This document shows, one piece after another, positions 5,511-25,725 of a DNA stretch of 64,000 nt; the stretch's first letter is position 1, and every line of letters begins with the position of its first letter. The position numbers were made by a program, and so were the translations under genes. The notes under the pieces are model-generated. The model worked only from the letters and a program-made list of their open reading frames with translations. It ran no database searches and was not told the origin of the DNA. Origin of the DNA: a virus; the IMG/VR virus record IMGVR_UViG_3300009709_000021, positions 1-64,000 of that record, one strand, 5' to 3'.

Positions 5511-5732
5511 ATGAATGCAAAGCAATACAAACGTCTCCGTAAGTCCCTTCGTCAGCAAGGCATTAATCCGAAGGAAACAGTGTATATTTCGGAACGAGAC
5601 GTTCTTAGTAATAATCTCCAACCGACTTTGAGTGTTGACCCTAAAGTATTTGGTAATCAGACGATTCTTTTGTATAAAGAATGTGGTCGAGCTGCTTACC
5701 AAGGATTGAAAGCAGCGTTCAAGGCCCTTTAA
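5511..5732 (+). CDS. Small basic hypothetical protein
   Basis: AAGGA RBS; ends just before tRNA. Confidence 0.6.
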   Translation: MNAKQYKRLRKSLRQQGINPKETVYISERDVLSNNLQPTLSVDPKVFGNQTILLYKECGRAAYQGLKAAFKAL

Positions 5733-5739
5733 GCAATAC

Positions 5740-5815
5740 GCCGGTTTAGCTCATTTGGTAGAGCTACTGAATTGTAATCAGTAGGTGGTGGGTTCGAATC
5801 CTACAACCGGCACCA
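5740..5815 (+). tRNA. tRNA-Thr(TGT)
   Basis: GCCGGTT/AACCGGC acceptor, ACTGA-ATTGTAA-TCAGT, TTCGAAT T-loop, CCA. Confidence 0.95.
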
Positions 5816-5981
5816 AATACAAAATCATGCACATCATACTATATCGAATATTATCGGCATTTCTTGTTATATTAGCTACGTTTATGTTTTGCAATAAGCC
5901 TGATAACGACGTAGTAGGTGCCGCAGGTATTGAATTTTTAGGAATAATATTCATATTCATCGCAATTTGTTTGGCTTTACC

Positions 5982-7356: not shown

Positions 7357-8472
7357 ATGTCACATTCTGGTCTTAAAACCAATCCAAAAGCCGTTTCTAC
7401 AACGGCAGTAAACCCCGCATTAGCCGTAGTCATTGGCCGATTTCAACCCCTGCATGCAGGGCATCTTGTTCTGATCCGTAAAGCCTTAAGTGTCGCACCC
7501 AATGTTCTTATTCTGGTTGGCTCGTCCCACCAGGCCCGGACAATTAAAAATCCGTTTTCGTACGAAGAGCGCCATGACATGATTGTCAATTCGCTCGATG
7601 CGGAAGAACGTACTCGGGTTGTAGTCTGGGCATTGACGGATAATCTATACTCCGACGATGAATGGATGCTATCTGTCCAGGAGAGCGTCAAGAAAGCCAA
7701 AGCCGCGTTCCAGCATTGGACAGACCATGGTGGGGACGGCCCTACAATTCTGGTCGGCAACAAGAAAGATGAATCCAGTTATTATCTGGACTTGTTCCCG
7801 CAGTACCACTCTGTTAGTCTCGGAGAATTCAAGCTTGGTTTCGATGCGACGCAGGTTCGTCGGATACTATTCGCGGCTTCTACACAGCTCGGCGTTTTGA
7901 AAAGTATGTTGTCTGAGTATACCTACAAGTTCCTTACTGAGAAATTCATCAGCTCGGCGGAATATCAACGACTCAATGAGGAATACTGGTTTCTTCATAA
8001 ATACAAAGAGTCATGGTCCAAGGTGCCATACCCCGTCATCTTTTCGACAGTGGATGCTATTGTTAAGAAGTCTGGTCATATCATTATGGTAACTAGGAAG
8101 AGGGCACCTGGCAAGGACCTCCTAGCTTTGCCAGGGGGATTTGTAAACCAGAATGAGACGTTGAAGCAAGCTGCAATTCGTGAATTAGTGGAGGAAACAA
8201 ACATTGATTTACCTCCGGCGATTCTGAACAACAGCGTCAAGGATATGAAAGTCTTTGACCATCCCGACCGTGATCCTCGTGGTCGGGTGATTTCCAACGT
8301 ATTTCTTTTTGATCTTGATGCAGCCGACAAGAAATACGGCTTACCAAAACTCAAAGCTGGGGATGATGCCAGTGAGTCTGGTTGGCTAGAAATTTCCACA
8401 GTTTTGCGTGATCTTCGTACTCAGATTTACGCTGACCATACCAGTATCATCCGAGAAATGCTCAACGTTTGA
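7357..8472 (+). CDS. nadM: Bifunctional NMN adenylyltransferase / Nudix ADP-ribose pyrophosphatase (NadM-Nudix)
   Basis: GRFQPLHAGH, KNPFS; Nudix box GGFV.....AAIRELVEET; RDPRGR. Confidence 0.95.
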   Translation: MSHSGLKTNPKAVSTTAVNPALAVVIGRFQPLHAGHLVLIRKALSVAPNVLILVGSSHQARTIKNPFSYEERHDMIVNSLDAEERTRVVVWALTDNLYSDDEWMLSVQESVKKAKAAFQHWTDHGGDGPTILVGNKKDESSYYLDLFPQYHSVSLGEFKLGFDATQVRRILFAASTQLGVLKSMLSEYTYKFLTEKFISSAEYQRLNEEYWFLHKYKESWSKVPYPVIFSTVDAIVKKSGHIIMVTRKRAPGKDLLALPGGFVNQNETLKQAAIRELVEETNIDLPPAILNNSVKDMKVFDHPDRDPRGRVISNVFLFDLDAADKKYGLPKLKAGDDASESGWLEISTVLRDLRTQIYADHTSIIREMLNV

Positions 8473-8497: not shown

Positions 8498-9913
8498 ATG
8501 AACCGCAACATCCTTTTGATGGCCGATGGCTATAAGTACACTCAATTTTCCCAGTTCGACCCTGACGTAGTAGGTATGTATTCATACATTTCTGCACGTT
8601 CGGCAGACGATACCCGAATTAAAGGTATTGTCGCAATTGGCGTGCAAGCATTTGTCAAAGAATACCTGATGAGACCAATTACTCAGGTTGACATTGATGA
8701 GGCAGAGGACATTATCGTCCCGTATCTCGGGAAACAAAATTTCCCAAAAGCAGCTTTCGATAGGATTCTTAAAAATTACGGCGGCCATATTCCCGTGATT
8801 ATCAAGATGGTTCCGGAAGGTACCATTGTTCCTATCGGTGCTCCGATAGCCAGCATTGAATGCTACGATCCTGACATCTTCCCTGTCGCCACCTTTTTGG
8901 AAACGGCACTTTTACGTGCCATTTGGTATCCATCGACAGTGGCGACTTGGAGTAAGCTGTGTAAGACAATCATCTCCGGATTTTTGGATGAGACGTCGGA
9001 TAATAAAGCCGAACTGTTGCCGACACGCCTACATGATTTTGGTGCGCGTGGGGCTTCTAGCCACGAAACGGCAGCACTTGGTGGGCTAGCCCACCTCGTG
9101 AATTTTGTTGGTACTGACACAGTGGAAGGTATTGTTGCAGTCAAACGCTACTACGGTGCGGGTGATGAAGTAGCAATTTCAATTCCGGCGTCTGAACACA
9201 GCACTATCACAAGTTGGGGTAGGGAGGGTGAATCGAAAGCTTACGCCAATATGATTGAGAAATTTGGCAAGCCCGGTTTGTTCTACGCCTGTGTATCGGA
9301 CTCGTATGACATTTTCAACGCCACTGAGAACATCTGGGGCAACGAACTAAAAGAAAAAGTCATCGGCGCTGGCGGTACGTTAGTTATACGTCCGGATAGT
9401 GGAGAACCCATTTCAACCTGTATCAAGATTATTAAGACTCTTGATACTGCATTTGGATCGGTTCAAAACTCCAAAGGCTACAAGGTGTTGAACCACGTCC
9501 GCATGATTCAAGGCGATGGTATCGATCCTGACATGATTCGCAGTATTCTCTATGCATTCCAACTCAATGGTTATGCAGCCGATAATATTGCTTTTGGCAT
9601 GGGAGGCGCGTTGCTGCAAAAGGTTACCCGAGATGACTTCGGTTTTGCTCAAAAGTGTTCTATGGTGTATCTGAAAGATGGGACATACCGTGCAGTGTAC
9701 AAGGATCCTGTTGGAGGTCGTAAAACTTCCAAGAAAGGGTTTCAAGCGCTTGTCAAAACCGATAAGGGTCTTCAAGCAGTTTCCGAAGAAACGGGTGCTC
9801 CTGTACCCGGAGACATTCTCATCGAGAAATATAACGGTGTGAAAATTCCTGGTAAGCCGACAATCTATGTCGAACGATTTTCTCATGTACAAGCTCGGGC
9901 TAACGTTGAGTAA
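8498..9913 (+). CDS. nadV: Nicotinamide phosphoribosyltransferase
   Basis: DGYK, LHDFGARG, SIPASEHS, VSDSYD, VIRPDSG, QGDG, FGMGG. Confidence 0.95.
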   Translation: MNRNILLMADGYKYTQFSQFDPDVVGMYSYISARSADDTRIKGIVAIGVQAFVKEYLMRPITQVDIDEAEDIIVPYLGKQNFPKAAFDRILKNYGGHIPVIIKMVPEGTIVPIGAPIASIECYDPDIFPVATFLETALLRAIWYPSTVATWSKLCKTIISGFLDETSDNKAELLPTRLHDFGARGASSHETAALGGLAHLVNFVGTDTVEGIVAVKRYYGAGDEVAISIPASEHSTITSWGREGESKAYANMIEKFGKPGLFYACVSDSYDIFNATENIWGNELKEKVIGAGGTLVIRPDSGEPISTCIKIIKTLDTAFGSVQNSKGYKVLNHVRMIQGDGIDPDMIRSILYAFQLNGYAADNIAFGMGGALLQKVTRDDFGFAQKCSMVYLKDGTYRAVYKDPVGGRKTSKKGFQALVKTDKGLQAVSEETGAPVPGDILIEKYNGVKIPGKPTIYVERFSHVQARANVE

Positions 9914-14403: not shown

Positions 14404-14489
14404 GCCAGAATGATGAAATTGGCAAACATAGTTCTCTTAAACAGAACCGGTCTTAGACCTTAGGGGTTCAAGTCCCCTTTCTGGCACCA
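14404..14489 (+). tRNA. tRNA-Leu(TAA)
   Basis: GCCAGAA/TTCTGGC acceptor, GTTCT-CTTAAAC-AGAAC, variable arm, TTCAAGT T-loop, CCA. Confidence 0.93.
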
Positions 14490-14509
14490 CTTTATTTTTA
14501 GGAATTAGC

Positions 14510-14716
14510 ATGACAACGCAATATGCAGATTGGCAACAACGTGTTATCGCAGAACGTGACGAAGTTCAGGAACGCCTCTCTAAACTAGAGCCTTTCTTGG
14601 ATTCAGTTGGTTTCGTCAATCTTGATGCAGACAACCAAGATCTACTTGTCGAACAAGCGCATATCATGGACGAGTATGTCAACGTACTGAATCGTCGAAT
14701 CGCTCTTTTCGAGTAA
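14510..14716 (+). CDS. Small helical phage protein, crAss001_48 / T4 RIIB.1-like
   Basis: QQRVIAERDE..ERL.KL..FL ... LL.EQ...M..Y..VL.RRI..F pattern (recalled family). Confidence 0.65.
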   Translation: MTTQYADWQQRVIAERDEVQERLSKLEPFLDSVGFVNLDADNQDLLVEQAHIMDEYVNVLNRRIALFE

Positions 14717-14722
14717 AAGTTT

Positions 14723-14812
14723 GGAAGGTCTACCCGATGGCCGGCGACGGGACCAGCTTTGAACCCTGGCGAGCTAGAAATAGCCTTAAGAGATCATTCC
14801 TCTTACCTTCCG
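14723..14812 (+). tRNA. Atypical tRNA-Ser(TGA)
   Basis: GGAAGGT/ACCTTCC acceptor, G73, long variable arm, loop TTTGAAC; T-loop ATCATTC non-canonical; no encoded CCA. Confidence 0.75.
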
Positions 14813-14818
14813 CAATGT

Positions 14819-15376
14819 CTACTTTAGTTTGAAATGATTTACAACATCTAAACAGAGTTGTTGAAATTCTTGTAAAGTTAAATCAGACTTGGCAAAATTA
14901 GCAGCTTTGCAGACTATATTACAATTATCTAAAGTGTTTTCTCCACCCTTAGATCTGGGATGTAAATGGTCAAGACTATAGCTTTGGCTATCTGTTAAGT
15001 CTATTTCCCTACCAGTTAGAAAACACTGGGATTTATTATTAAAAAATTTTTCAAGAAGTTCATTCGGTGTAAAGGATCGACTGGTTCTAATTTCCGGATT
15101 AGATAAATTTTTATTGAAATCTCGAGTTGCATCAAGCAGTTTTTTTCTGGTTTTATAAGGTAGAGTTCCAGAAAATTTGTCGAGTTTTGCTCCAAGTACG
15201 CTACCTTGACTTTGAATCCTATTCTTTCTATTTCTAGAATGTACCTTCTCTTTCTGCCCAGCCCCAAGGTGATAGGCAATAGTACCTTTAGAGCAACCTA
15301 GTTTTTCTTGTATTTCGTTATAGCTAAATCCTTCTTCATGAAGTGACAAAATTTTATCTTTATGTATTGATTTCAT
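14819..15376 (-). CDS. Free-standing HNH endonuclease with N-terminal HTH
   Basis: GFSYNEIQEKLGCSKGTIAYHL; CFLTG..SLDHLHPRSKGG.N..DN....C..AN..K. Confidence 0.85.
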   Translation of the reverse strand: MKSIHKDKILSLHEEGFSYNEIQEKLGCSKGTIAYHLGAGQKEKVHSRNRKNRIQSQGSVLGAKLDKFSGTLPYKTRKKLLDATRDFNKNLSNPEIRTSRSFTPNELLEKFFNNKSQCFLTGREIDLTDSQSYSLDHLHPRSKGGENTLDNCNIVCKAANFAKSDLTLQEFQQLCLDVVNHFKLK

Positions 15377-15420
15377 AGTTCGAATCCATTATACTTTTAT
15401 TTTAATTCGAACCCGTTACT

Positions 15421-15510
15421 GCTAGCGTAGTTTAACGGTAAAACAGCGGATTTATATCCCGTGCGTCAGATAAACGGCCAATGCAGATTCGACTTCTGCC
15501 GCTAGCACCA
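15421..15510 (+). tRNA. tRNA-Ile(TAT) with long variable arm
   Basis: GCTAGCG/CGCTAGC acceptor, A73, CCA, loop TTTATAT, ~20-nt variable region, TTCGACT T-loop. Confidence 0.8.
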
Positions 15511-15819: not shown

Positions 15820-16010
15820 GCTTGGTAGAAAACACCCGTGCTAATAGGCATTATCAAGAAGAAATGTTAGAGCTCTCCAAGAGACAAAGTAAGAAATACT
15901 GGGATCGAAAATTGGCTGAAGCTAAAGAGAAAGAACAGTCTAAGCAATCACCGGAAGGTAACGCTGATCTGGTATAAGAAAAGTAACAACCACTTTTCTT
16001 GGAGTTAACC

Positions 16011-16244
16011 ATGGAAACTAACACTATCAGCAGAGGATTAGGTCAAACCAAACCACATCTTTTCAAAGTACCTCCTACAGCATGGGCTGGCAGTTTGGAA
16101 TGGACATGGGCCTGTGAAGGCTTCACTGAGAAGACTCCCGTTGGGTACGCAAAACAGACTGGATATGGAGTAAGTATGGAACATGCTTACGCTGTCTGGG
16201 ACGACCCTCATGCGGCTGCTGAGAAAATTTGGAAAAGAGCCTAA
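16011..16244 (+). CDS. Hypothetical protein
   Basis: After promoter motif and GGAG RBS. Confidence 0.55.
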   Translation: METNTISRGLGQTKPHLFKVPPTAWAGSLEWTWACEGFTEKTPVGYAKQTGYGVSMEHAYAVWDDPHAAAEKIWKRA

Positions 16245-16305
16245 CCTTCTGGTATAAGAAAGTTGGAGAGAGAAATTAAACTCTTTCCGTTTCTGGAAAT
16301 TCAAC

Positions 16306-16506
16306 ATGGACATGAAACAAGCCTTGTTGGACTTCCAGAAGATTTCAGCGCTTCACCTTTTAGGCCATGAAACGCCAGAGTCTTGTGAGAAGTCCAGAAG
16401 TAAAGTTACATTCGATGTAAAAGGAAAAGCGGTAAGAGTTTATTACCGTAAAAAGCAACATAATTCAGATGAGAGTAAACAATGGCAGACGCTGAAGAAG
16501 TTGTAG
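16306..16506 (+). CDS. Hypothetical protein
   Basis: After promoter motif. Confidence 0.5.
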   Translation: MDMKQALLDFQKISALHLLGHETPESCEKSRSKVTFDVKGKAVRVYYRKKQHNSDESKQWQTLKKL

Positions 16507-16766
16507 AAGGCAAGCGCGGTCCGAAGGTTGATCCGAATCGGCATCCTCGTTGCCGTATTGGTAAAACGCAGAAGGATCGAGCCACAGGTGCTCAGAATCG
16601 AGCATACGCCAATCGCCAAGCAAGGGCAGACTGGCAAAATAACGGTGGAACTTTTCCATATGCCAACTGCAACGGAAAGCGAAATCGAACAGTATTTACG
16701 GGCAAGGGCAACCAGCGAATAGTCCTTGTTCCAAAGAGCACTCCTGGAAGTAAGGGCAAGCGGTAG
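16482..16766 (+). CDS. Highly basic R/K/G/N-rich small protein
   Basis: GAGAG RBS; composition suggests nucleic-acid binding; directly precedes ncRNA array. Confidence 0.6.
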   Translation: MADAEEVVEGKRGPKVDPNRHPRCRIGKTQKDRATGAQNRAYANRQARADWQNNGGTFPYANCNGKRNRTVFTGKGNQRIVLVPKSTPGSKGKR

Positions 16767-16769
16767 TAT

Positions 16770-17993
16770 TGCCGGTTGTACCTCTGACAGGTATGTGGTG
16801 ACTCGGCCCGAATCCGAGATATAGACTGTAGTACCTAAATGTTATGGTAGTTGATTATATGACTGTTTTGTGGGTTTAATATGACTGTTAAGTCATACTA
16901 ATTGAGAGCATGTACCCTAAGGTGGGATTGATCCGGAGATACTAGCTAATCTTAGTATAGTCGGGGACTTGCCATAAGAAGTTCTCGTATAAATCCTTTG
17001 AAAGCAAATAGTCGGGTAATTGGTCCTGGCTTAGTAGCGCAAAGGTTGACCAATCGGAAACAGTCCGGTACCCCACCCCAGGTCCACTCATCGGCCTGGG
17101 GTGGCCATCTTCAAATCCAAGTTTTAGACTCGTTACCAGGTCTCTCACCCGGCGGGTGATACCATTTATTGGGAAAACAATGTCTAGAATTTGGTTGACC
17201 GCCGAGAATAGTACGGCTTCGAACATAAGAATACTCCGGGTCCGGAACCGGGGTAAATCCTGCCAGAAAAAGCTATAGATCTGTGGGCGTAGGGATCACT
17301 TTTCGAGAAGTTTAACAGGGTAATAGACTCTTCGCACTATGTATGGTTGAATACTCTGCCCAGGGGTGGAGGCTACAGGACCATGACGTCGGACGTGGTG
17401 AACCGCTGTTTCTTGCTTGTTAATATCATTCTTCGAAACAGAGCCGAAGTCTTCAAAACCGAGTTGTGACATGCGACTAGACAGCTTACTCAGAGACTCA
17501 GAGCCTCCATCGCGTGTGGCCTCATTCTGCTGGGCTTGGATGGCCATTGCTCACTTCCGCGAAAGCGAAGATGTGCCCCTGGGAGGTTGGCCGGTGGGAA
17601 TAGTCCACCAAACTTTTAAATCCATGTGTTAGAATGCGTGGGCCACATCTTGACGTAGTGCAAGTGCAACCCTTTAATCCGTACACAGGTTCTCTGGGTA
17701 CCGTAAGAATATTCTAGCAAATGGTTGACCGCAACGAATAGTGTTGCACCGAATTTTTCCTAGTCATGACGGCGTGGAGCCGACATACAGGCATTGATCC
17801 GCAACTATGATTAGGTTATAATTGACCTCCGGGAATAGTCCGGTCCTTACTGAATAAGTCGTTCCCTTAGGTATGGCAACAAAGCGCTCCCTATCCGGAC
17901 TAACTTGAGCCTAATAACTAAGGTTATGCTGACTGCCGGGAATAGTTCGGCACCCACCTCTCCACCTCGGGCCAAATCATCGGCTCGGGGTGG
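16770..17993 (+). ncRNA. Array of unassigned paralogous structured RNAs (six GGUUGACC / GAAUAGU-hairpin modules)
   Basis: Modules at 17044, 17193, 17585, 17723, 17822, 17930 with covarying stems; duplicated 32-nt hairpin at 17073 and 17962; no credible CDS. Confidence 0.75.
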
Positions 17994-18020
17994 TTCCTTT
18001 CTTGTCTCTTTTTCTTTAGT

Positions 18021-18419
18021 ATGTCTGAAAACACTCACAAACAGGTGATTCTTGTCCGCACCGACTTAAAAATGGGCAAGGGAAAGATTGGTGCGCAAGT
18101 TGCACACGCGAGTATGGCTGCATTGTTGGATGGTGCGATTTCGTCGGCAGCAAATAATAGCCTAAGTTTATGGCTTGGCGACGAGAGATTCGGTCCTTGG
18201 CTCAACGGAGCCTTCACAAAAGTTTGTTTGAAGGTGGATAATGAACAAGCGCTTTTCGACCATTATAGCGCTGCTAGAGAGCGCGGTATGCTTGCCTCTC
18301 TTATTCGGGATAGTGGTCGTACTGTGTTCCATGGCGAGCCCACTTATACTTGTGTGGCAATTGGGCCTGACAGTCGCGAAAAAATTGATGCGCTGACTGA
18401 AACATTGAGCTTGCTATGA
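18021..18419 (+). CDS. pth2: Peptidyl-tRNA hydrolase type II
   Basis: KQVILVRTDLKMGKGKIGAQVAHAS, KVCLKV, IRDSGRT, TCVAIGP. Confidence 0.93.
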   Translation: MSENTHKQVILVRTDLKMGKGKIGAQVAHASMAALLDGAISSAANNSLSLWLGDERFGPWLNGAFTKVCLKVDNEQALFDHYSAARERGMLASLIRDSGRTVFHGEPTYTCVAIGPDSREKIDALTETLSLL

Positions 18420-18649
18420 CACAGAAAGAACGGTTAAAACTATTTGAAGATGCGTTTCATCGAATTCAATTGTATCGTGAAGTTACAATGGATGGAGCCA
18501 AAGTAATAGAGCTTTTGGATATTATCGGAGACTGGTCTTACGCACATAGGGCTGGTAATGGAGAATTATCTGATAGAGAAGTGAAACGTGCAATCGCGTA
18601 CCAAGAGAATAGACTACAGAATTTTTTACACGGAGTAAGAACAGCATGA
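18416..18649 (+). CDS. Hypothetical protein
   Basis: ATGA-coupled ORF. Confidence 0.6.
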   Translation: MTQKERLKLFEDAFHRIQLYREVTMDGAKVIELLDIIGDWSYAHRAGNGELSDREVKRAIAYQENRLQNFLHGVRTA

Positions 18650-19032
18650 TGACATCTCATCAAAAAACAGTTAATGTTAATCGTAAAATTTTGATTGACG
18701 CTTTAATTAAAAACCTTGAAGACCACCGTAAAGAGTATCGAGAAGCTGTGGAGGGTTACCGGCTTACAATCATGAATGATTTGGAAGGCGCTTTACATGA
18801 TATGGAACGCGCCAAGACTGATGACGAAATTCGCAAGGTCCAAGTCAAATTTCAATTTCCGATGAATTATGAAATGCAATACATTGAAGCTATCGATATG
18901 TTGCAATTTTCTGTTGACGAAAATATCCAAATCGATCAACAGACTTTCCAATCTTGGATTAAAAATGAATGGTCTTGGACAACGCATTTTAAAGCATTGA
19001 ATTCGACCTATACTTTGGCAAATTCTCGGTAA
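18646..19032 (+). CDS. Hypothetical protein
   Basis: ATGA-coupled ORF with GGAG RBS. Confidence 0.65.
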   Translation: MMTSHQKTVNVNRKILIDALIKNLEDHRKEYREAVEGYRLTIMNDLEGALHDMERAKTDDEIRKVQVKFQFPMNYEMQYIEAIDMLQFSVDENIQIDQQTFQSWIKNEWSWTTHFKALNSTYTLANSR

Positions 19033-19038
19033 AATAGC

Positions 19039-19067
19039 TTGACAGAGAATCGCAGTTTTGATACACT
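19039..19067 (+). promoter_or_regulatory. Sigma70-like promoter for tRNA pair, overlapped by inverted repeat
   Basis: TTGACA-17-TACACT. Confidence 0.6.
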
Positions 19068-19079
19068 GCGATTTCTAAT

Positions 19080-19153
19080 GCGAGATTAGTTTAATGGCAA
19101 AACCACAGCCTTCCAAGCTGACGTCGTCGGTTCGATTCCGACATTTCGCTCCA
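19080..19153 (+). tRNA. tRNA-Gly(TCC)
   Basis: GCGAGAT/ATTTCGC acceptor, CAGC-CTTCCAA-GCTG, TTCGATT, TCCA. Confidence 0.95.
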
Positions 19154-19164
19154 GTAAACTTTGC

Positions 19165-19238
19165 TGGCCAGTAGCTCAGCAGGTAGTAGCGAAACGCTGT
19201 TAACGTTTAGGTCCTAGGTTCGAACCCTAGCTGGCCAG
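19165..19238 (+). tRNA. tRNA-Asn(GTT), no encoded CCA
   Basis: TGGCCAG/CTGGCCA acceptor, AAACG-CTGTTAA-CGTTT, TTCGAAC. Confidence 0.9.
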
Positions 19239-19267
19239 CAAAGTTTATACGCCCAGAGAGCACCACA

Positions 19268-20317
19268 GTGAACGATTTTACTACTACAACTGCAACTCAA
19301 TTTTTACCATCGATTTTTTCGGTACCGAACCCAGTACCGGTTAAAAAGAAATTAGAAGGCAATGCAAGACTTCATGTCTTCACTGCATACTTCAATCATA
19401 ATCAATCAGAAAATGTTCGTAACAATTTTTTCCGTTTTCGTGAGCATATGGAAAAACTTGGAGTTACCTTACATGTGGTTGAAGTTGTTTTAAATACTGC
19501 GCCATTTGAAGTAACAACTTCAGATAATGTTCTGCATACCCAATTACGAGCAAAATACGAACTTTTTCGTAAAGAAAACGTTATTAATATTGCTATTCGC
19601 CGTGCTTTAGAAAATTTTAAAGACGATATTCAATTCATTGCATGGATCGATGCGGATGTACAATTTGTTAATGAGAATGTTGTTCAGGAAACAATTGACC
19701 AGCTACATCGACATAAAGTAGTTCAGATGTGGACACGAGCTATTGACTTGGATCCTGAAGGTGTTCCGCTCAACCTTGGTGGATCTGGTGCTGAAAATGC
19801 AATTGTCAAATCGTTCGTATGGTGTCATCTTGAATACGGTATTGAAAATAGGCCCAGAGGTCGAGGATACTCCACCTTGTGGCATCCTGGTTATGCTTGG
19901 GCCATTACTCGTGAAGCATACGAAGAGATGAGTGGACTATTTGACTTGTCTGTATTTGGTTCTGGCGATACACATATGGCAATGTCTTTTGTAGGACGCG
20001 GTAAAGAAACATTGCATGGTAAAACAACTCAGAATTACCAAGAACGCTCCTGGGAACACATGTATCGAATAGAAACTGTGATCAATGGAGATGTCGGATG
20101 TATTAACGGACTGCTTATGCATTATTGGCATGGGCGAAAGGCAAATCGCAAATATGTAGAACGTTGGTCAATTCCGGTTGACAATAAATTCGAGCCCGGT
20201 TATGATCTCTACCGCAGACCTGATGGACTGCTTGAGTTGACTGACCGAAACCCTAAACTTCGTGACGATATCCGGGCGTATATTCGCCAACGTGATGAAG
20301 ATTGTAATACCCTTTAA
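19268..20317 (+). CDS. GT-A fold glycosyltransferase-like protein
   Basis: KENVIN, IAWIDAD (DXD), HPGYAWA, GSGD, H.WHG. Confidence 0.7.
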   Translation: MNDFTTTTATQFLPSIFSVPNPVPVKKKLEGNARLHVFTAYFNHNQSENVRNNFFRFREHMEKLGVTLHVVEVVLNTAPFEVTTSDNVLHTQLRAKYELFRKENVINIAIRRALENFKDDIQFIAWIDADVQFVNENVVQETIDQLHRHKVVQMWTRAIDLDPEGVPLNLGGSGAENAIVKSFVWCHLEYGIENRPRGRGYSTLWHPGYAWAITREAYEEMSGLFDLSVFGSGDTHMAMSFVGRGKETLHGKTTQNYQERSWEHMYRIETVINGDVGCINGLLMHYWHGRKANRKYVERWSIPVDNKFEPGYDLYRRPDGLLELTDRNPKLRDDIRAYIRQRDEDCNTL

Positions 20318-23683: not shown

Positions 23684-23825
23684 TAACCGTGGTGTAGAGA
23701 AGACTTACTTCATACCGGAGCGGCGGGTCACAGGTTCAAATCCTGCATTCCTCTTAATTGAGGAAGTAGCTCAGTCTGGCAGAGCAGCCGCAATAGAAAC
23801 GTCTTTTCGAATTTGTTCCCGGTTA
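23684..23825 (+). ncRNA. Y RNA-like #5 with permuted tRNA module
   Basis: TAACCG-TGGTGTAG..TTACTTC..TTGTTCC-CGGTTA; T-arm CAGG-TTCAAAT-CCTG, closed acceptor-like hairpin, then TAGCTCAGTCTGGCAGAGC. Confidence 0.85.
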
Positions 23826-24091: not shown

Positions 24092-24231
24092 AAACTCGTG
24101 ATGTAGATAAGAAGTTCTTCTCCTGTTAAGAGGGTGGTCGGGGGTTCGAATCCCTCCGGTGGCAAATCAGGGCCGCCGTAGCTCAGTTGGTAGAGCACCT
24201 ACGATTCGTCTTATCGCTTGTTCCCGAGTTT
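24092..24231 (+). ncRNA. Y RNA-like #6 (YrlA-type)
   Basis: AAACTCG..GTTCTTC, CTGTTAA loop, T-arm TTCGAAT, CGGTGGC/GCCGCCG hairpin, D-arm TAGCTCAGTTGGTAGAGC, TTGTTCC-CGAGTTT. Confidence 0.85.
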
Positions 24232-24249
24232 GTAACACAGATTAGAAAA

Positions 24250-24312
24250 TTTCATGGTGTTGAGCAGAGATACTTCTCTGGTGATAAACTCTCTGTTCGT
24301 TTGTTCCTGAAA
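24250..24312 (+). ncRNA. Y RNA-like #7 (minimal)
   Basis: TTTCA-TGGTG..GAGCAGAGA/TCTCTGTTC..TTGTTCC-TGAAA. Confidence 0.75.
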
Positions 24313-24327
24313 ATTAAGGTGATAAAA

Positions 24328-25725
24328 ATGGCTAAAGAAACAAAATTGACTGCTATTGAGCAACTTCGTCGCGCAACTCTTTCAACCTTCTTGTGGGAAG
24401 GCAATTACACGGAAGACGGTGAATCGATCCAAAAGCGTATCGGTGATCTGATCAAAGTGTGCGATACGAAAGACGTTGCTGCTCTGGCAATCGAAGCTCG
24501 TGAAGAAATGCATCTTCGTTCTATCCCGTTGCTGTTGGTACGTGAACTGGCCCGTCGGCCAAAGTCAGGGGGCGTCATTAGTGAGACCCTTGCTAGGATT
24601 ATCCAACGTCCTGATGAACTGCACAAGTTCTTGGACCTGTATTGGAAGGACGGCAAGCAACCTCTGAGCGCCCAGGTCAAGAAAGGTCTTGCAGCAGCGC
24701 TGCAGAAATTCAATGCTTACAGCCTTGCCAAATATCGGCAGGGAGAAAAGGTTTCGGTACGTGACGTCATGTTCATGACCCACGCAACACCGAAAACTTC
24801 GTCAGGTAAACAAACGAGGTTTGAGCGCCAACAGGAACGTGAAACTGGCGTTGCGTTGGAACGTACGCCTGATGAGCTGCTGTTCAAACAAGTTGCAGAA
24901 GATACCCTTCCGACACCGGATACCTGGGAAGTTGCGTTGTCGGCCGGGGAAGGAAAGAAAGAAACCTTCGAACGTTTGTTGACGGATGGCAAGCTCGGTT
25001 ACATGGCGCTGATGCGTAATCTGCGTAACATGGCTGAAGCCGGCGTTCGTCAAGATCTAGTCGGCGACGCTCTTTTAGCCCTTCGTGGTGCAGACCAAGT
25101 CCTACCGTTCCGATTCTTCACTGCTGCTAAGCACGCTTCAGTTTATCGGATTTGGTTGGAGGAAGCGTTCATTGAGCATGCTAAGAAACTTCCTAAGTTG
25201 CCTGGTAAGACGGTCTTCGTGGTGGATGTTTCCGGTTCGATGGGTAGTATGGTTTCAGGTAAGTCAGAAGTGACCCGTGCTATCGCAGCATCATCGTTGG
25301 CAGCAATTGCCCGTGAACTTTGCGAAGAATCCGTGATATATGCAACGGCGGGCAGTGATCATGCTAAGACTCACAAGACAGCCCTTGTCCCGATGTCTCG
25401 TGGCATGACACTTGCGGAAGACATCTGGAAAATGTGTCATCCGTTGGGCGGTGGCGGTATCTTCTTGAATCAGGTCATGAAGTTCCTGGTTTCGGAAAAG
25501 ATTGAAAACGTCAGGCGTACCATTGTGTTGACGGATGAACAGGATTGCGGTGTCGGAGTTGATACTCCTGACAAAGCACCAACGCTTTCTGAACACAACT
25601 ACATTATGAATGTAGCTGCCTACTCGAATGGCATCGGGTATGGCAAGTGGACGAAGATCAATGGTTTTAGCGAGAATGTGTTGAAATACATCGCTGAACT
25701 TGAAGCTTCAAACGCTCGGCAGTAA
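24328..25725 (+). CDS. rsr: Ro60/Rsr TROVE plus vWA RNA-binding protein
   Basis: FLWE, RPDE, Y.LAKY, TWEVALS, ALMRNLRNM, LPFRF, MIDAS DVSGSM, LTDEQ; AAGGTGA RBS before ATG 24328. Confidence 0.9.
   Translation: MAKETKLTAIEQLRRATLSTFLWEGNYTEDGESIQKRIGDLIKVCDTKDVAALAIEAREEMHLRSIPLLLVRELARRPKSGGVISETLARIIQRPDELHKFLDLYWKDGKQPLSAQVKKGLAAALQKFNAYSLAKYRQGEKVSVRDVMFMTHATPKTSSGKQTRFERQQERETGVALERTPDELLFKQVAEDTLPTPDTWEVALSAGEGKKETFERLLTDGKLGYMALMRNLRNMAEAGVRQDLVGDALLALRGADQVLPFRFFTAAKHASVYRIWLEEAFIEHAKKLPKLPGKTVFVVDVSGSMGSMVSGKSEVTRAIAASSLAAIARELCEESVIYATAGSDHAKTHKTALVPMSRGMTLAEDIWKMCHPLGGGGIFLNQVMKFLVSEKIENVRRTIVLTDEQDCGVGVDTPDKAPTLSEHNYIMNVAAYSNGIGYGKWTKINGFSENVLKYIAELEASNARQ

Follow-up and report, generated by a model that had tools for sequence, protein, structure and literature searches.

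The transfer RNA (tRNA) regions of bacteriophages hide stable RNAs of unknown role, among them RNAs C and D of the T4 tRNA cluster, the Y RNAs, GOLLD and ROOL, and spacers of tRNA operons also give rise to RNAs, such as the E. coli sponge 3'ETS-leuZ. Y RNAs are cotranscribed and processed, and Ro60 contacts mainly the 5' strand of their stem, GGUCCGA, the bacterial motif being GNCGAAN0-1G in the terminal stem (PMC4201824). Here we describe an array of a small RNA module in the IMG/VR virus record IMGVR_UViG_3300009709_000021, an uncultivated phage record of 102 kb which is 77% complete and whose first 64 kb constitute the window analysed in this work. Six copies of the module lie on the + strand at 16991-17951, in 1.25 kb without any credible gene between a basic orphan open reading frame (ORF) and a PTH2 gene (Table 1). 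Our favoured interpretation, with a probability of roughly 0.4, is a small-RNA handle which is linked to tRNAs, is read by the host and has been amplified here into a processed chain; this chain would serve either as a decoy or sponge, or to provide a shared tag for maturation and stability.

The core of the module, of about 45 nucleotides (nt), is formed by a first helix (P1), a linker of 2-3 nt and a second helix (P2), which is a hairpin of 5 base pairs (bp) with a RAAYAGU loop. The base of P1 is fixed in sequence (5' YCAA-[A]U-CC ... GG-UUGA 3', of which one or two bases are bulged), and the insert borne by P1 varies in length between 6 and 324 nt, the smallest being a tetraloop and the largest a whole domain. 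A preliminary description of the locus had proposed a constant handle with unrelated inserts, and such an insertion-tolerant P1 is what was found. The six copies that it had located were all present, and when the whole 102-kb record was searched with a covariance model built from the conserved 38 nt, exactly these six were identified, with 33-44 bits. At the sequence level, 0.06 matches to TTGACC-N3-9-RAAYAGT would be expected in 64 kb and five were observed, of which four belong to the array and one lies outside it. On the + strand there are five copies of GAATAGT within 17206-17946 (740 nt) and four of AAATCC within 16991-17623, the frequency of AAATCC elsewhere being about 0.5 per kb per strand. 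The pairing of AAATCC with GGTT proposed earlier stands for the CC/GG and AA/UU pairs, but the U between them is bulged, and in several copies RNAfold extends P1 outward to UCAA/UUGA around a bulged AU. Similarly, several units open with AAATCC as had been stated, but the P1 partners of units 5 and 6 do not have this sequence. Repeats of the CRISPR or type III ToxI-like kind were discarded because the stems differ between copies and the unit spacing is irregular (92-392 nt), and no Cas or ToxN-type gene was seen near the array among the ORFs scanned.

Pattern scans of phage records, filtered for a folded P2, identified the module as a single copy in at least four unrelated phage lineages; the two viral scans give lower bounds, and the unfolded pattern matches (45 of 47, 15 of 21 and 9 of 9 lacked the hairpin) served as a control of chance. 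The array had been presented as a system private to this phage, but its module proved to be a wider phage element linked to tRNAs, usually single and free of cargo. In five rumen-type phages (L016, L107, L108, L109 and L110) it lies inside tRNA arrays, and further carriers among the matches listed are L031, the related phages L188 and L260 (loop GAACAGT), and the L352 group (GGTTGACT), whose P1 is capped by a GAAA tetraloop. Three matches (L238, L240 and L258) were ascribed to chance, their stems of 4-5 bp falling within coding regions, and the L317/L353 group (GGTTGCAA, with an all-wobble P2) was left as doubtful. The strict pattern was also searched in bacteria and archaea (185,579 species, one genome for each), and none of the nine matches obtained folded. 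In addition, nothing similar to the array was found with blastn among 50,697 phage records, and the motif was absent from the 38 phage loci encoding PTH2 relatives. Comparison of this phage (G000) with the records holding L016 (G001) and L031 (G002) revealed only two protein matches each between them, the strongest of which, between G000 and G001, was nicotinamide phosphoribosyltransferase (NAMPT, encoded at 8498-9913 of the window, + strand). Judged by their protein content, the three are unrelated phages without a common candidate partner.

The position of the module with respect to tRNAs was also studied. In the rumen-type phages P2 ends 4-6 nt ahead of tRNA-Ile(GAU) or tRNA-Ser and, in most copies, the P2 hairpin begins 43-48 nt past the preceding tRNA. 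In L352, P2 ends 7 nt ahead of a tRNA-Gln which is followed by a terminator. The module of L188 and L260 is located about 80 nt past tRNA-Gln and 90 nt ahead of a small ORF, and that of L031 lies downstream of a strong sigma-70-like promoter and upstream of an ORF.

Several other elements were observed in these loci. The rumen-type phages (L016, L107-L110) have a look-alike two-hairpin leader 5-8 nt ahead of tRNA-Leu, Glu, Met and Ser, which is a tandem of UGACA plus a 4-5-bp hairpin with a GAnAGA loop (UGACA-AAUCG-GAUAGA-CGGUU-GACA-GCCG-GACAGA-CGGC; minus strand of L107, oriented 5640-5690, 5800-5845 and 2300-2345). The stems of this look-alike covary, e.g., GCCG/CGGC, GUUG/CAAC and UUCG/CGAA, and its presence ahead of other tRNAs suggests a wider family of tRNA-leader hairpins. 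In L188 (minus strand, ~8060-8125) and L260 a conserved long-range helix, GGGAACC ... GGUUCCC, is found directly after the module and encloses a second AAAUCC ... GGUU without P2, just ahead of the ribosome-binding site of the ORF. The rumen-type phages also have a transfer-messenger RNA (50.8 bits; loci L107 9953-10355 (-), L016 632-1310 and L109 4550-4797), and the same loci gave several tRNA matches of 100-130 nt, implying inserts or introns.

Covariation was analysed in an alignment of the six array copies and seven copies from other phages. The preliminary description had noticed that the hairpin stems differ and yet pair, and in P2 all pairs (5/5) are indeed changed on both sides, with 96.9% of the cells paired; none of 500 shuffles reached the observed values, and pairing was 14-58% when the partner was slid by 1-3 columns. 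The first two pairs of P1 are always C-G and C-G, and the third and fourth vary (U-A, A-U, C-G, G-C). Furthermore, L188 and L260 have entirely different P1 inserts with pairing in both, and RNAfold extends P1 in these phages to GGUCGA/UUGACC. The wobble pairs of P1 and P2 are all G.U on the + strand, with zero A.C inside helices. This covariation, the wobbles being only G.U on the + strand and the terminator being on that strand evidence an RNA structure of the + strand, and not a signal in duplex DNA. Folding energy, which by itself is weak evidence, gave z = -2.1 on the + strand and -0.2 on the minus strand for unit 1, and z = -3.1 for unit 2. The helices previously drawn in the largest domain are present in its minimum free energy fold, but the energy is no better than that of shuffles (z = -0.05).

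These data bear on the possibility of a DNA-level signal, namely an operator, a site of recombination between small gene cassettes or a promoter, whether of the hairpin type or with TTGACC as -35 box. As a -35 hexamer TTGACC is close to the consensus, the hairpin (stem, loop and stem) has the ideal spacer length of 17 nt, the look-alikes of rumen phages read TTGACA, and a hairpin ending 4-7 nt before the tRNA +1 recalls the N4-type hairpin promoters. However, a -10 box at 16-18 nt is absent in all 13 copies (the hexamers 17 nt past TTGACC are TTCGAA, AAACTT, ACCGAA, CCTTAC, ACATAT, GCTATG and AAAACA, among others), and a promoter scan at the units gave none except TTGATC-17-TATAAT inside unit 5. 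In addition, compensatory changes together with wobbles on the + strand only are a misfit for duplex recognition or for a hairpin of the template strand, and P1 covaries as well across very different insert lengths. A role at the DNA level is very improbable.

Concerning known RNA families, the absence of any recognised Rfam family noted earlier was confirmed. Rfam 15 (4227 families, cmscan, E up to 10) gave only two chance-level unrelated matches on 16760-18030, and at gathering and lax thresholds nothing was obtained for the motif in the window, the array and six related loci. Likewise, the GOLLD and ROOL models had no match in the window or the six related loci, and no tRNA was identified by ARAGORN or RF00005 within 16770-17993. 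The module nevertheless shares several features with Y RNAs (YrlA, RF02553) and their Ro60/Rsr partner: a UUGACC block, a conserved stem whose upper domains are variable or tRNA-like, and the presence of several copies close to the tRNAs of phages, to which the cotranscription and processing of Y RNAs may be added. The explanation preferred in the preliminary description was a second class of Ro60 (Rsr) ligands, with a Y-RNA-like stem and variable upper modules. The shared modular logic agrees with this, as do the identity of UUGACC with the 3' strand of the classical Ro-binding helix, the 5' partner of L188 and L260 (GGUCGA, which pairs with the whole UUGACC and is near GGUCCGA and the bacterial GNCGAA motif) and the location of the array 6 kb from the TROVE gene and the Y-like RNAs; the TROVE gene is 6.2 kb downstream on the same strand, the linkage criterion for Y RNAs being ~4 kb. 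However, the 5' strand read by Ro is missing from all six copies and from most others, the 5' flanks of the six units being GTATAAAT, CTTCAAAT, GGGTAAAT, TTTTAAAT and the like, and GGUCGAA being found only in L188/L260. No TROVE gene was detected in G001, G002 and G003, whose records are 53-61% complete, and the RNAs adjacent to Ro60 in this phage have another stem (GUGRUG / UGUUCC). YrlA gave no match on the array at E up to 10, and its sub-threshold matches in the window were only at 23722-23789 and 24133-24199. The module also differs from Y RNAs in its obligatory RAAYAGU-loop hairpin and in being often a tRNA 5' leader. The proposed tie to Ro60 was thus not borne out by the other carriers or by the Y-like RNAs of this phage, and a second ligand class is quite unlikely.

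To look for transcripts, four public runs were compared with 16000-19400 of the window. One of them, a small moss metatranscriptome, yielded one contig of 344 nt (depth 15.8) identical to 17244-17587, which corresponds to unit 3 without flanks, the rest of the 3.4 kb being silent. As small RNAs are lost in ordinary libraries, the silence elsewhere is not evidence against the other units, and a stable RNA of 1.2 kb would have assembled further. Discrete RNAs of unit length had been anticipated, and this contig fits a maturation into units, although a single contig, whose strand is not readable and whose ends are imprecise by some tens of bases, gives a weak hint.

The contig ends at 17587, inside GGU/UGGCC (the slash marks the end), which would agree with the cutting of polycistronic tRNA and non-coding RNA transcripts at the GGUU/GACC junction, the module being either a small ribozyme that cleaves itself or the dedicated site of a nuclease. 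The sequence G-G/U-U resembles an RNase E-type site. Moreover, the module matches the habits of small ribozymes (hammerhead, twister, pistol, hatchet, HDV-like 'theta') in its size, ~20 conserved junction and loop bases, restriction to phages, tandem or tRNA-adjacent copies and lack of a fixed gene partner. However, it has neither their cores nor their pseudoknots: no Rfam ribozyme family matched at E up to 10 (twister-sister and hairpin were also checked), and inspection by eye of the P2 loop against the other conserved blocks gave no consistent pseudoknot or tertiary pairing. The imprecision of the contig ends and the rarity of new self-cleaving classes also count against this proposal, and cleavage at the junction by a ribozyme or a dedicated nuclease seems quite improbable.

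The leader position of several copies led us to consider a cis-acting element of the put/nut type, in which the nascent two-hairpin RNA, by itself or together with a small basic protein, would act on RNA polymerase. Such an element would allow read-through of long untranslated stretches rich in tRNA and non-coding RNA hairpins despite Rho-dependent or intrinsic termination. As in the ~70-nt put RNAs of HK022, the module has two stem-loops and a short linker. It also shares covarying stems, a conserved loop and untranslated leaders just after promoters with put and lambda-type nut, and the succession of a linear conserved block and a hairpin of 5 bp whose loop is rich in purines is reminiscent of boxA-boxB. 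Every context is an untranslated leader or array, and an arginine-rich orphan ORF (P0001) adjoins the array. The L031 copy is promoter-proximal like putL, which sits just downstream of its promoter, and a single put site is effective over at least 10 kb (PMC9378689). Precisely because one put site works over such a distance, six copies in 0.9 kb would be superfluous. Besides, the carriers appear to infect different hosts, whereas put needs features of one polymerase lineage; the module has no evident sequence likeness to these sites and no boxA-like sequence; and the rumen copies are mid-array, 4-6 nt from the next tRNA. A homologue of P0001 was not found in the other carriers compared. All in all, an action of this type on the polymerase is unlikely. 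A partnership with P0001, which had also been suggested, did not find support: this protein is an orphan without Pfam or PHROG family and without relatives, its Atlas structure model (predicted local distance difference test, pLDDT, 0.40) is disordered and gave no usable fold match, and the carrier phages compared share no relevant protein.

The conserved residues at the base of P1 are near-universal bases of the tRNA T-arm in permuted order, with GGUU as 52-55 and (UUC)AAAUCC as 54-62, the latter with nine-base identity to the T-arm consensus in unit 2 and L016. In addition, the 13-bp P1 of unit 2 has about the length of the acceptor plus T stem. Unlike a tRNA, the module has this order permuted, the loop opened, C56 replaced and neither D nor anticodon arms. 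The permuted likeness suggests that the module may descend from a tRNA fragment and, perhaps, that its reader could belong to the tRNA-handling machinery. That the core constitutes a new functional RNA class, either a small self-cleaving ribozyme or a split T-loop mimic of the tRNA elbow which recruits host tRNA processing, is a rather unlikely proposal; if it were true, phages would punctuate and mature non-tRNA RNAs with it, and it would be a natural 'tRNA-free' tag for arbitrary inserts.

Returning to the host-read handle, the single modules of other phages would be transcribed along with tRNAs, often as a 5' leader. As P2 ends 4-7 nt before the tRNA, the RNase P cut of the next tRNA would free the module as a small RNA. 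The simplest reader of such a stand-alone handle would be a host factor rather than a phage factor, since unrelated phages share the module but no relevant protein. This phage would have multiplied the module into a chain closed by a terminator, giving unit-length RNAs with different inserts. The outcome could be either a multivalent sponge or decoy for the host factor, or a punctuation by which the same processing and stability are conferred on unrelated RNA domains. Spacer-derived RNAs of tRNA operons are similar to the module as non-tRNA RNAs of tRNA transcripts which are freed by tRNA-processing enzymes, but they are lineage-specific and have no common structural core, whereas the module is conserved across unrelated phages and takes inserts.

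Several observations weigh against this interpretation. There are about 14 distinct copies among the matches listed, several of them from related phages; the folding energies of units 3, 4 and 6 are similar to those of shuffles (z about 0); and the RNA evidence is one strand-ambiguous contig from one small library, for which carry-over of DNA is possible. The likeness to the T-arm is a resemblance read off the sequence. In L031 and L188/L260 the handle is ahead of protein genes, which fits a cis-acting leader equally well, and the L031 promoter would start transcription at or inside AAUCC, questioning the need for the outer AA/UU pairs.

Coordinates of the units and of the adjoining features are given in Table 1. 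The two 12-bp hairpins, T1 and T2, are related and resemble each other in their loops (CACTCATC and AAATCATC). In unit 5 there is a match to 10 of 12 positions of a sigma-70-like promoter (17794-17822; TTGATC, 17 nt, TATAAT), and its TATAAT overlaps the unusual GGTTATAATTGACC of this unit.

Table 1. Units of the array and adjoining features (window coordinates; scores from the covariance model)
Feature	Position	Strand	Description
P0001	16482-16766	+	94-amino-acid, very basic (arginine-rich) orphan ORF; upstream neighbour, context only
Unit 1	16991-17069	+	AAATCC 16991-16996; P1 CCUUUG/CAAAGG; 47-nt insert; conserved 8-mer GGTTGACC 17044-17051; P2 17053-17069, loop AAACAGT; 33.5 bits
T1	17073-17104	+	12-bp hairpin after unit 1, then CCA (to 17107); from sequence and folds
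Unit 2	17111-17217	+	UCAA-AU-CC 17111-17118; 13-bp P1; 74-nt insert; conserved 8-mer GGTTGACC 17193-17200; P2 17201-17217, A.A at stem top; 43.3 bits
Unit 3	17255-17609	+	AAATCC 17255-17260; P1 CCUGCCAG/CUGGGAGG; 324-nt insert; conserved 8-mer GGTTGGCC 17585-17592; P2 17593-17609; 39.3 bits
Unit 4	17618-17747	+	AAATCC 17618-17623; long P1; 99-nt insert; conserved 8-mer GGTTGACC 17723-17730; P2 17731-17747; 43.5 bits
Unit 5	17753-17844	+	P1 UUUUUCCUAGUC / GAUUAGGUUAUAA; 53-nt insert; TTGACC 17822-17827; P2 17828-17844 (4 bp + U.U); 38.1 bits
Unit 6	17845-17951	+	P1 5' strand ambiguous (CCUUA 17845 or CCUUAG ~17866), partner CUAAGG 17918-17923; TGACT 17930-17934; P2 17935-17951; 39.4 bits
T2	17962-18003	+	Intrinsic-terminator-like hairpin, 12 pairs (9 G-C), T-rich tail; closes the array
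PTH2	18021-18419		Peptidyl-tRNA hydrolase gene; begins just after the array terminator

The coding potential of the array was also evaluated. None of its ORFs has a Pfam or PHROG family, and the ORFs adjoining the array have no RNA enzyme domain. The largest frame, of 83 amino acids, is on the minus strand inside unit 3 (17296-17547). It has no family, its codon score of 0.009 is intermediate between those of true (0.29) and false (-0.64) frames, and the sole relative of it in a set of 5.8 billion proteins matches it exactly over 44 residues and is frameshifted beyond them, so that the frame is not conserved; no relative was found when viral contigs were queried with it. A coding reading of unit 3 was rejected for these reasons, which agrees with the absence of any credible gene noted in the first place. 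The frameshifted variant of this ORF, P0005 (55 amino acids), is present on 45 contigs of the Joint Genome Institute, the longest of 30,958 nt, which indicates that unit 3, or the phage bearing it, is common in this series of samples.

Seven tRNAs were identified in the window with ARAGORN, and the array is flanked by those at 14404-15510 and 19080-19239. Downstream of the array there are Y-RNA-like elements and the TROVE/Ro60 gene (24187-25725). The neighbourhood of the six-copy chain thus comprises seven Y-like RNAs, Ro60, PTH2 and seven tRNAs, and for this reason the genome is a good model for a phage-borne RNA toolkit. At the head of the non-coding stretch, 16795-16818 contains GTGGTGA and then a T-arm-like hairpin (CTCGG, CCCGAAT, CCGAG), resembling the 5' motif and T-arm of the downstream Y-like RNAs. 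An HNH endonuclease with an N-terminal helix-turn-helix domain is encoded at 14819-15376 (-), between tRNA-Ser and tRNA-Ile and on the opposite strand, and an HNH gene is also found after tRNA-Ile(GAU) in L016 and L107.

A search of the literature, with the strings GGUUGACC and GAAUAGU and for RNA motifs of phage tRNA arrays, gave no relevant published description. The module can be regarded as a new RNA family within a known kind of tRNA-linked phage small RNAs, its six-fold array bearing inserts being unusual. To these RNAs it adds a compact, well-covarying and insertion-tolerant element which unrelated phages have in common and which is associated with the 5' leaders of tRNAs. Should its reader be a host factor, the module would mark a process of the host that is tapped or blocked by many phages. 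If, on the other hand, the module directs cleavage or maturation, it would provide a natural processing tag of ~45 nt for releasing designed RNAs.

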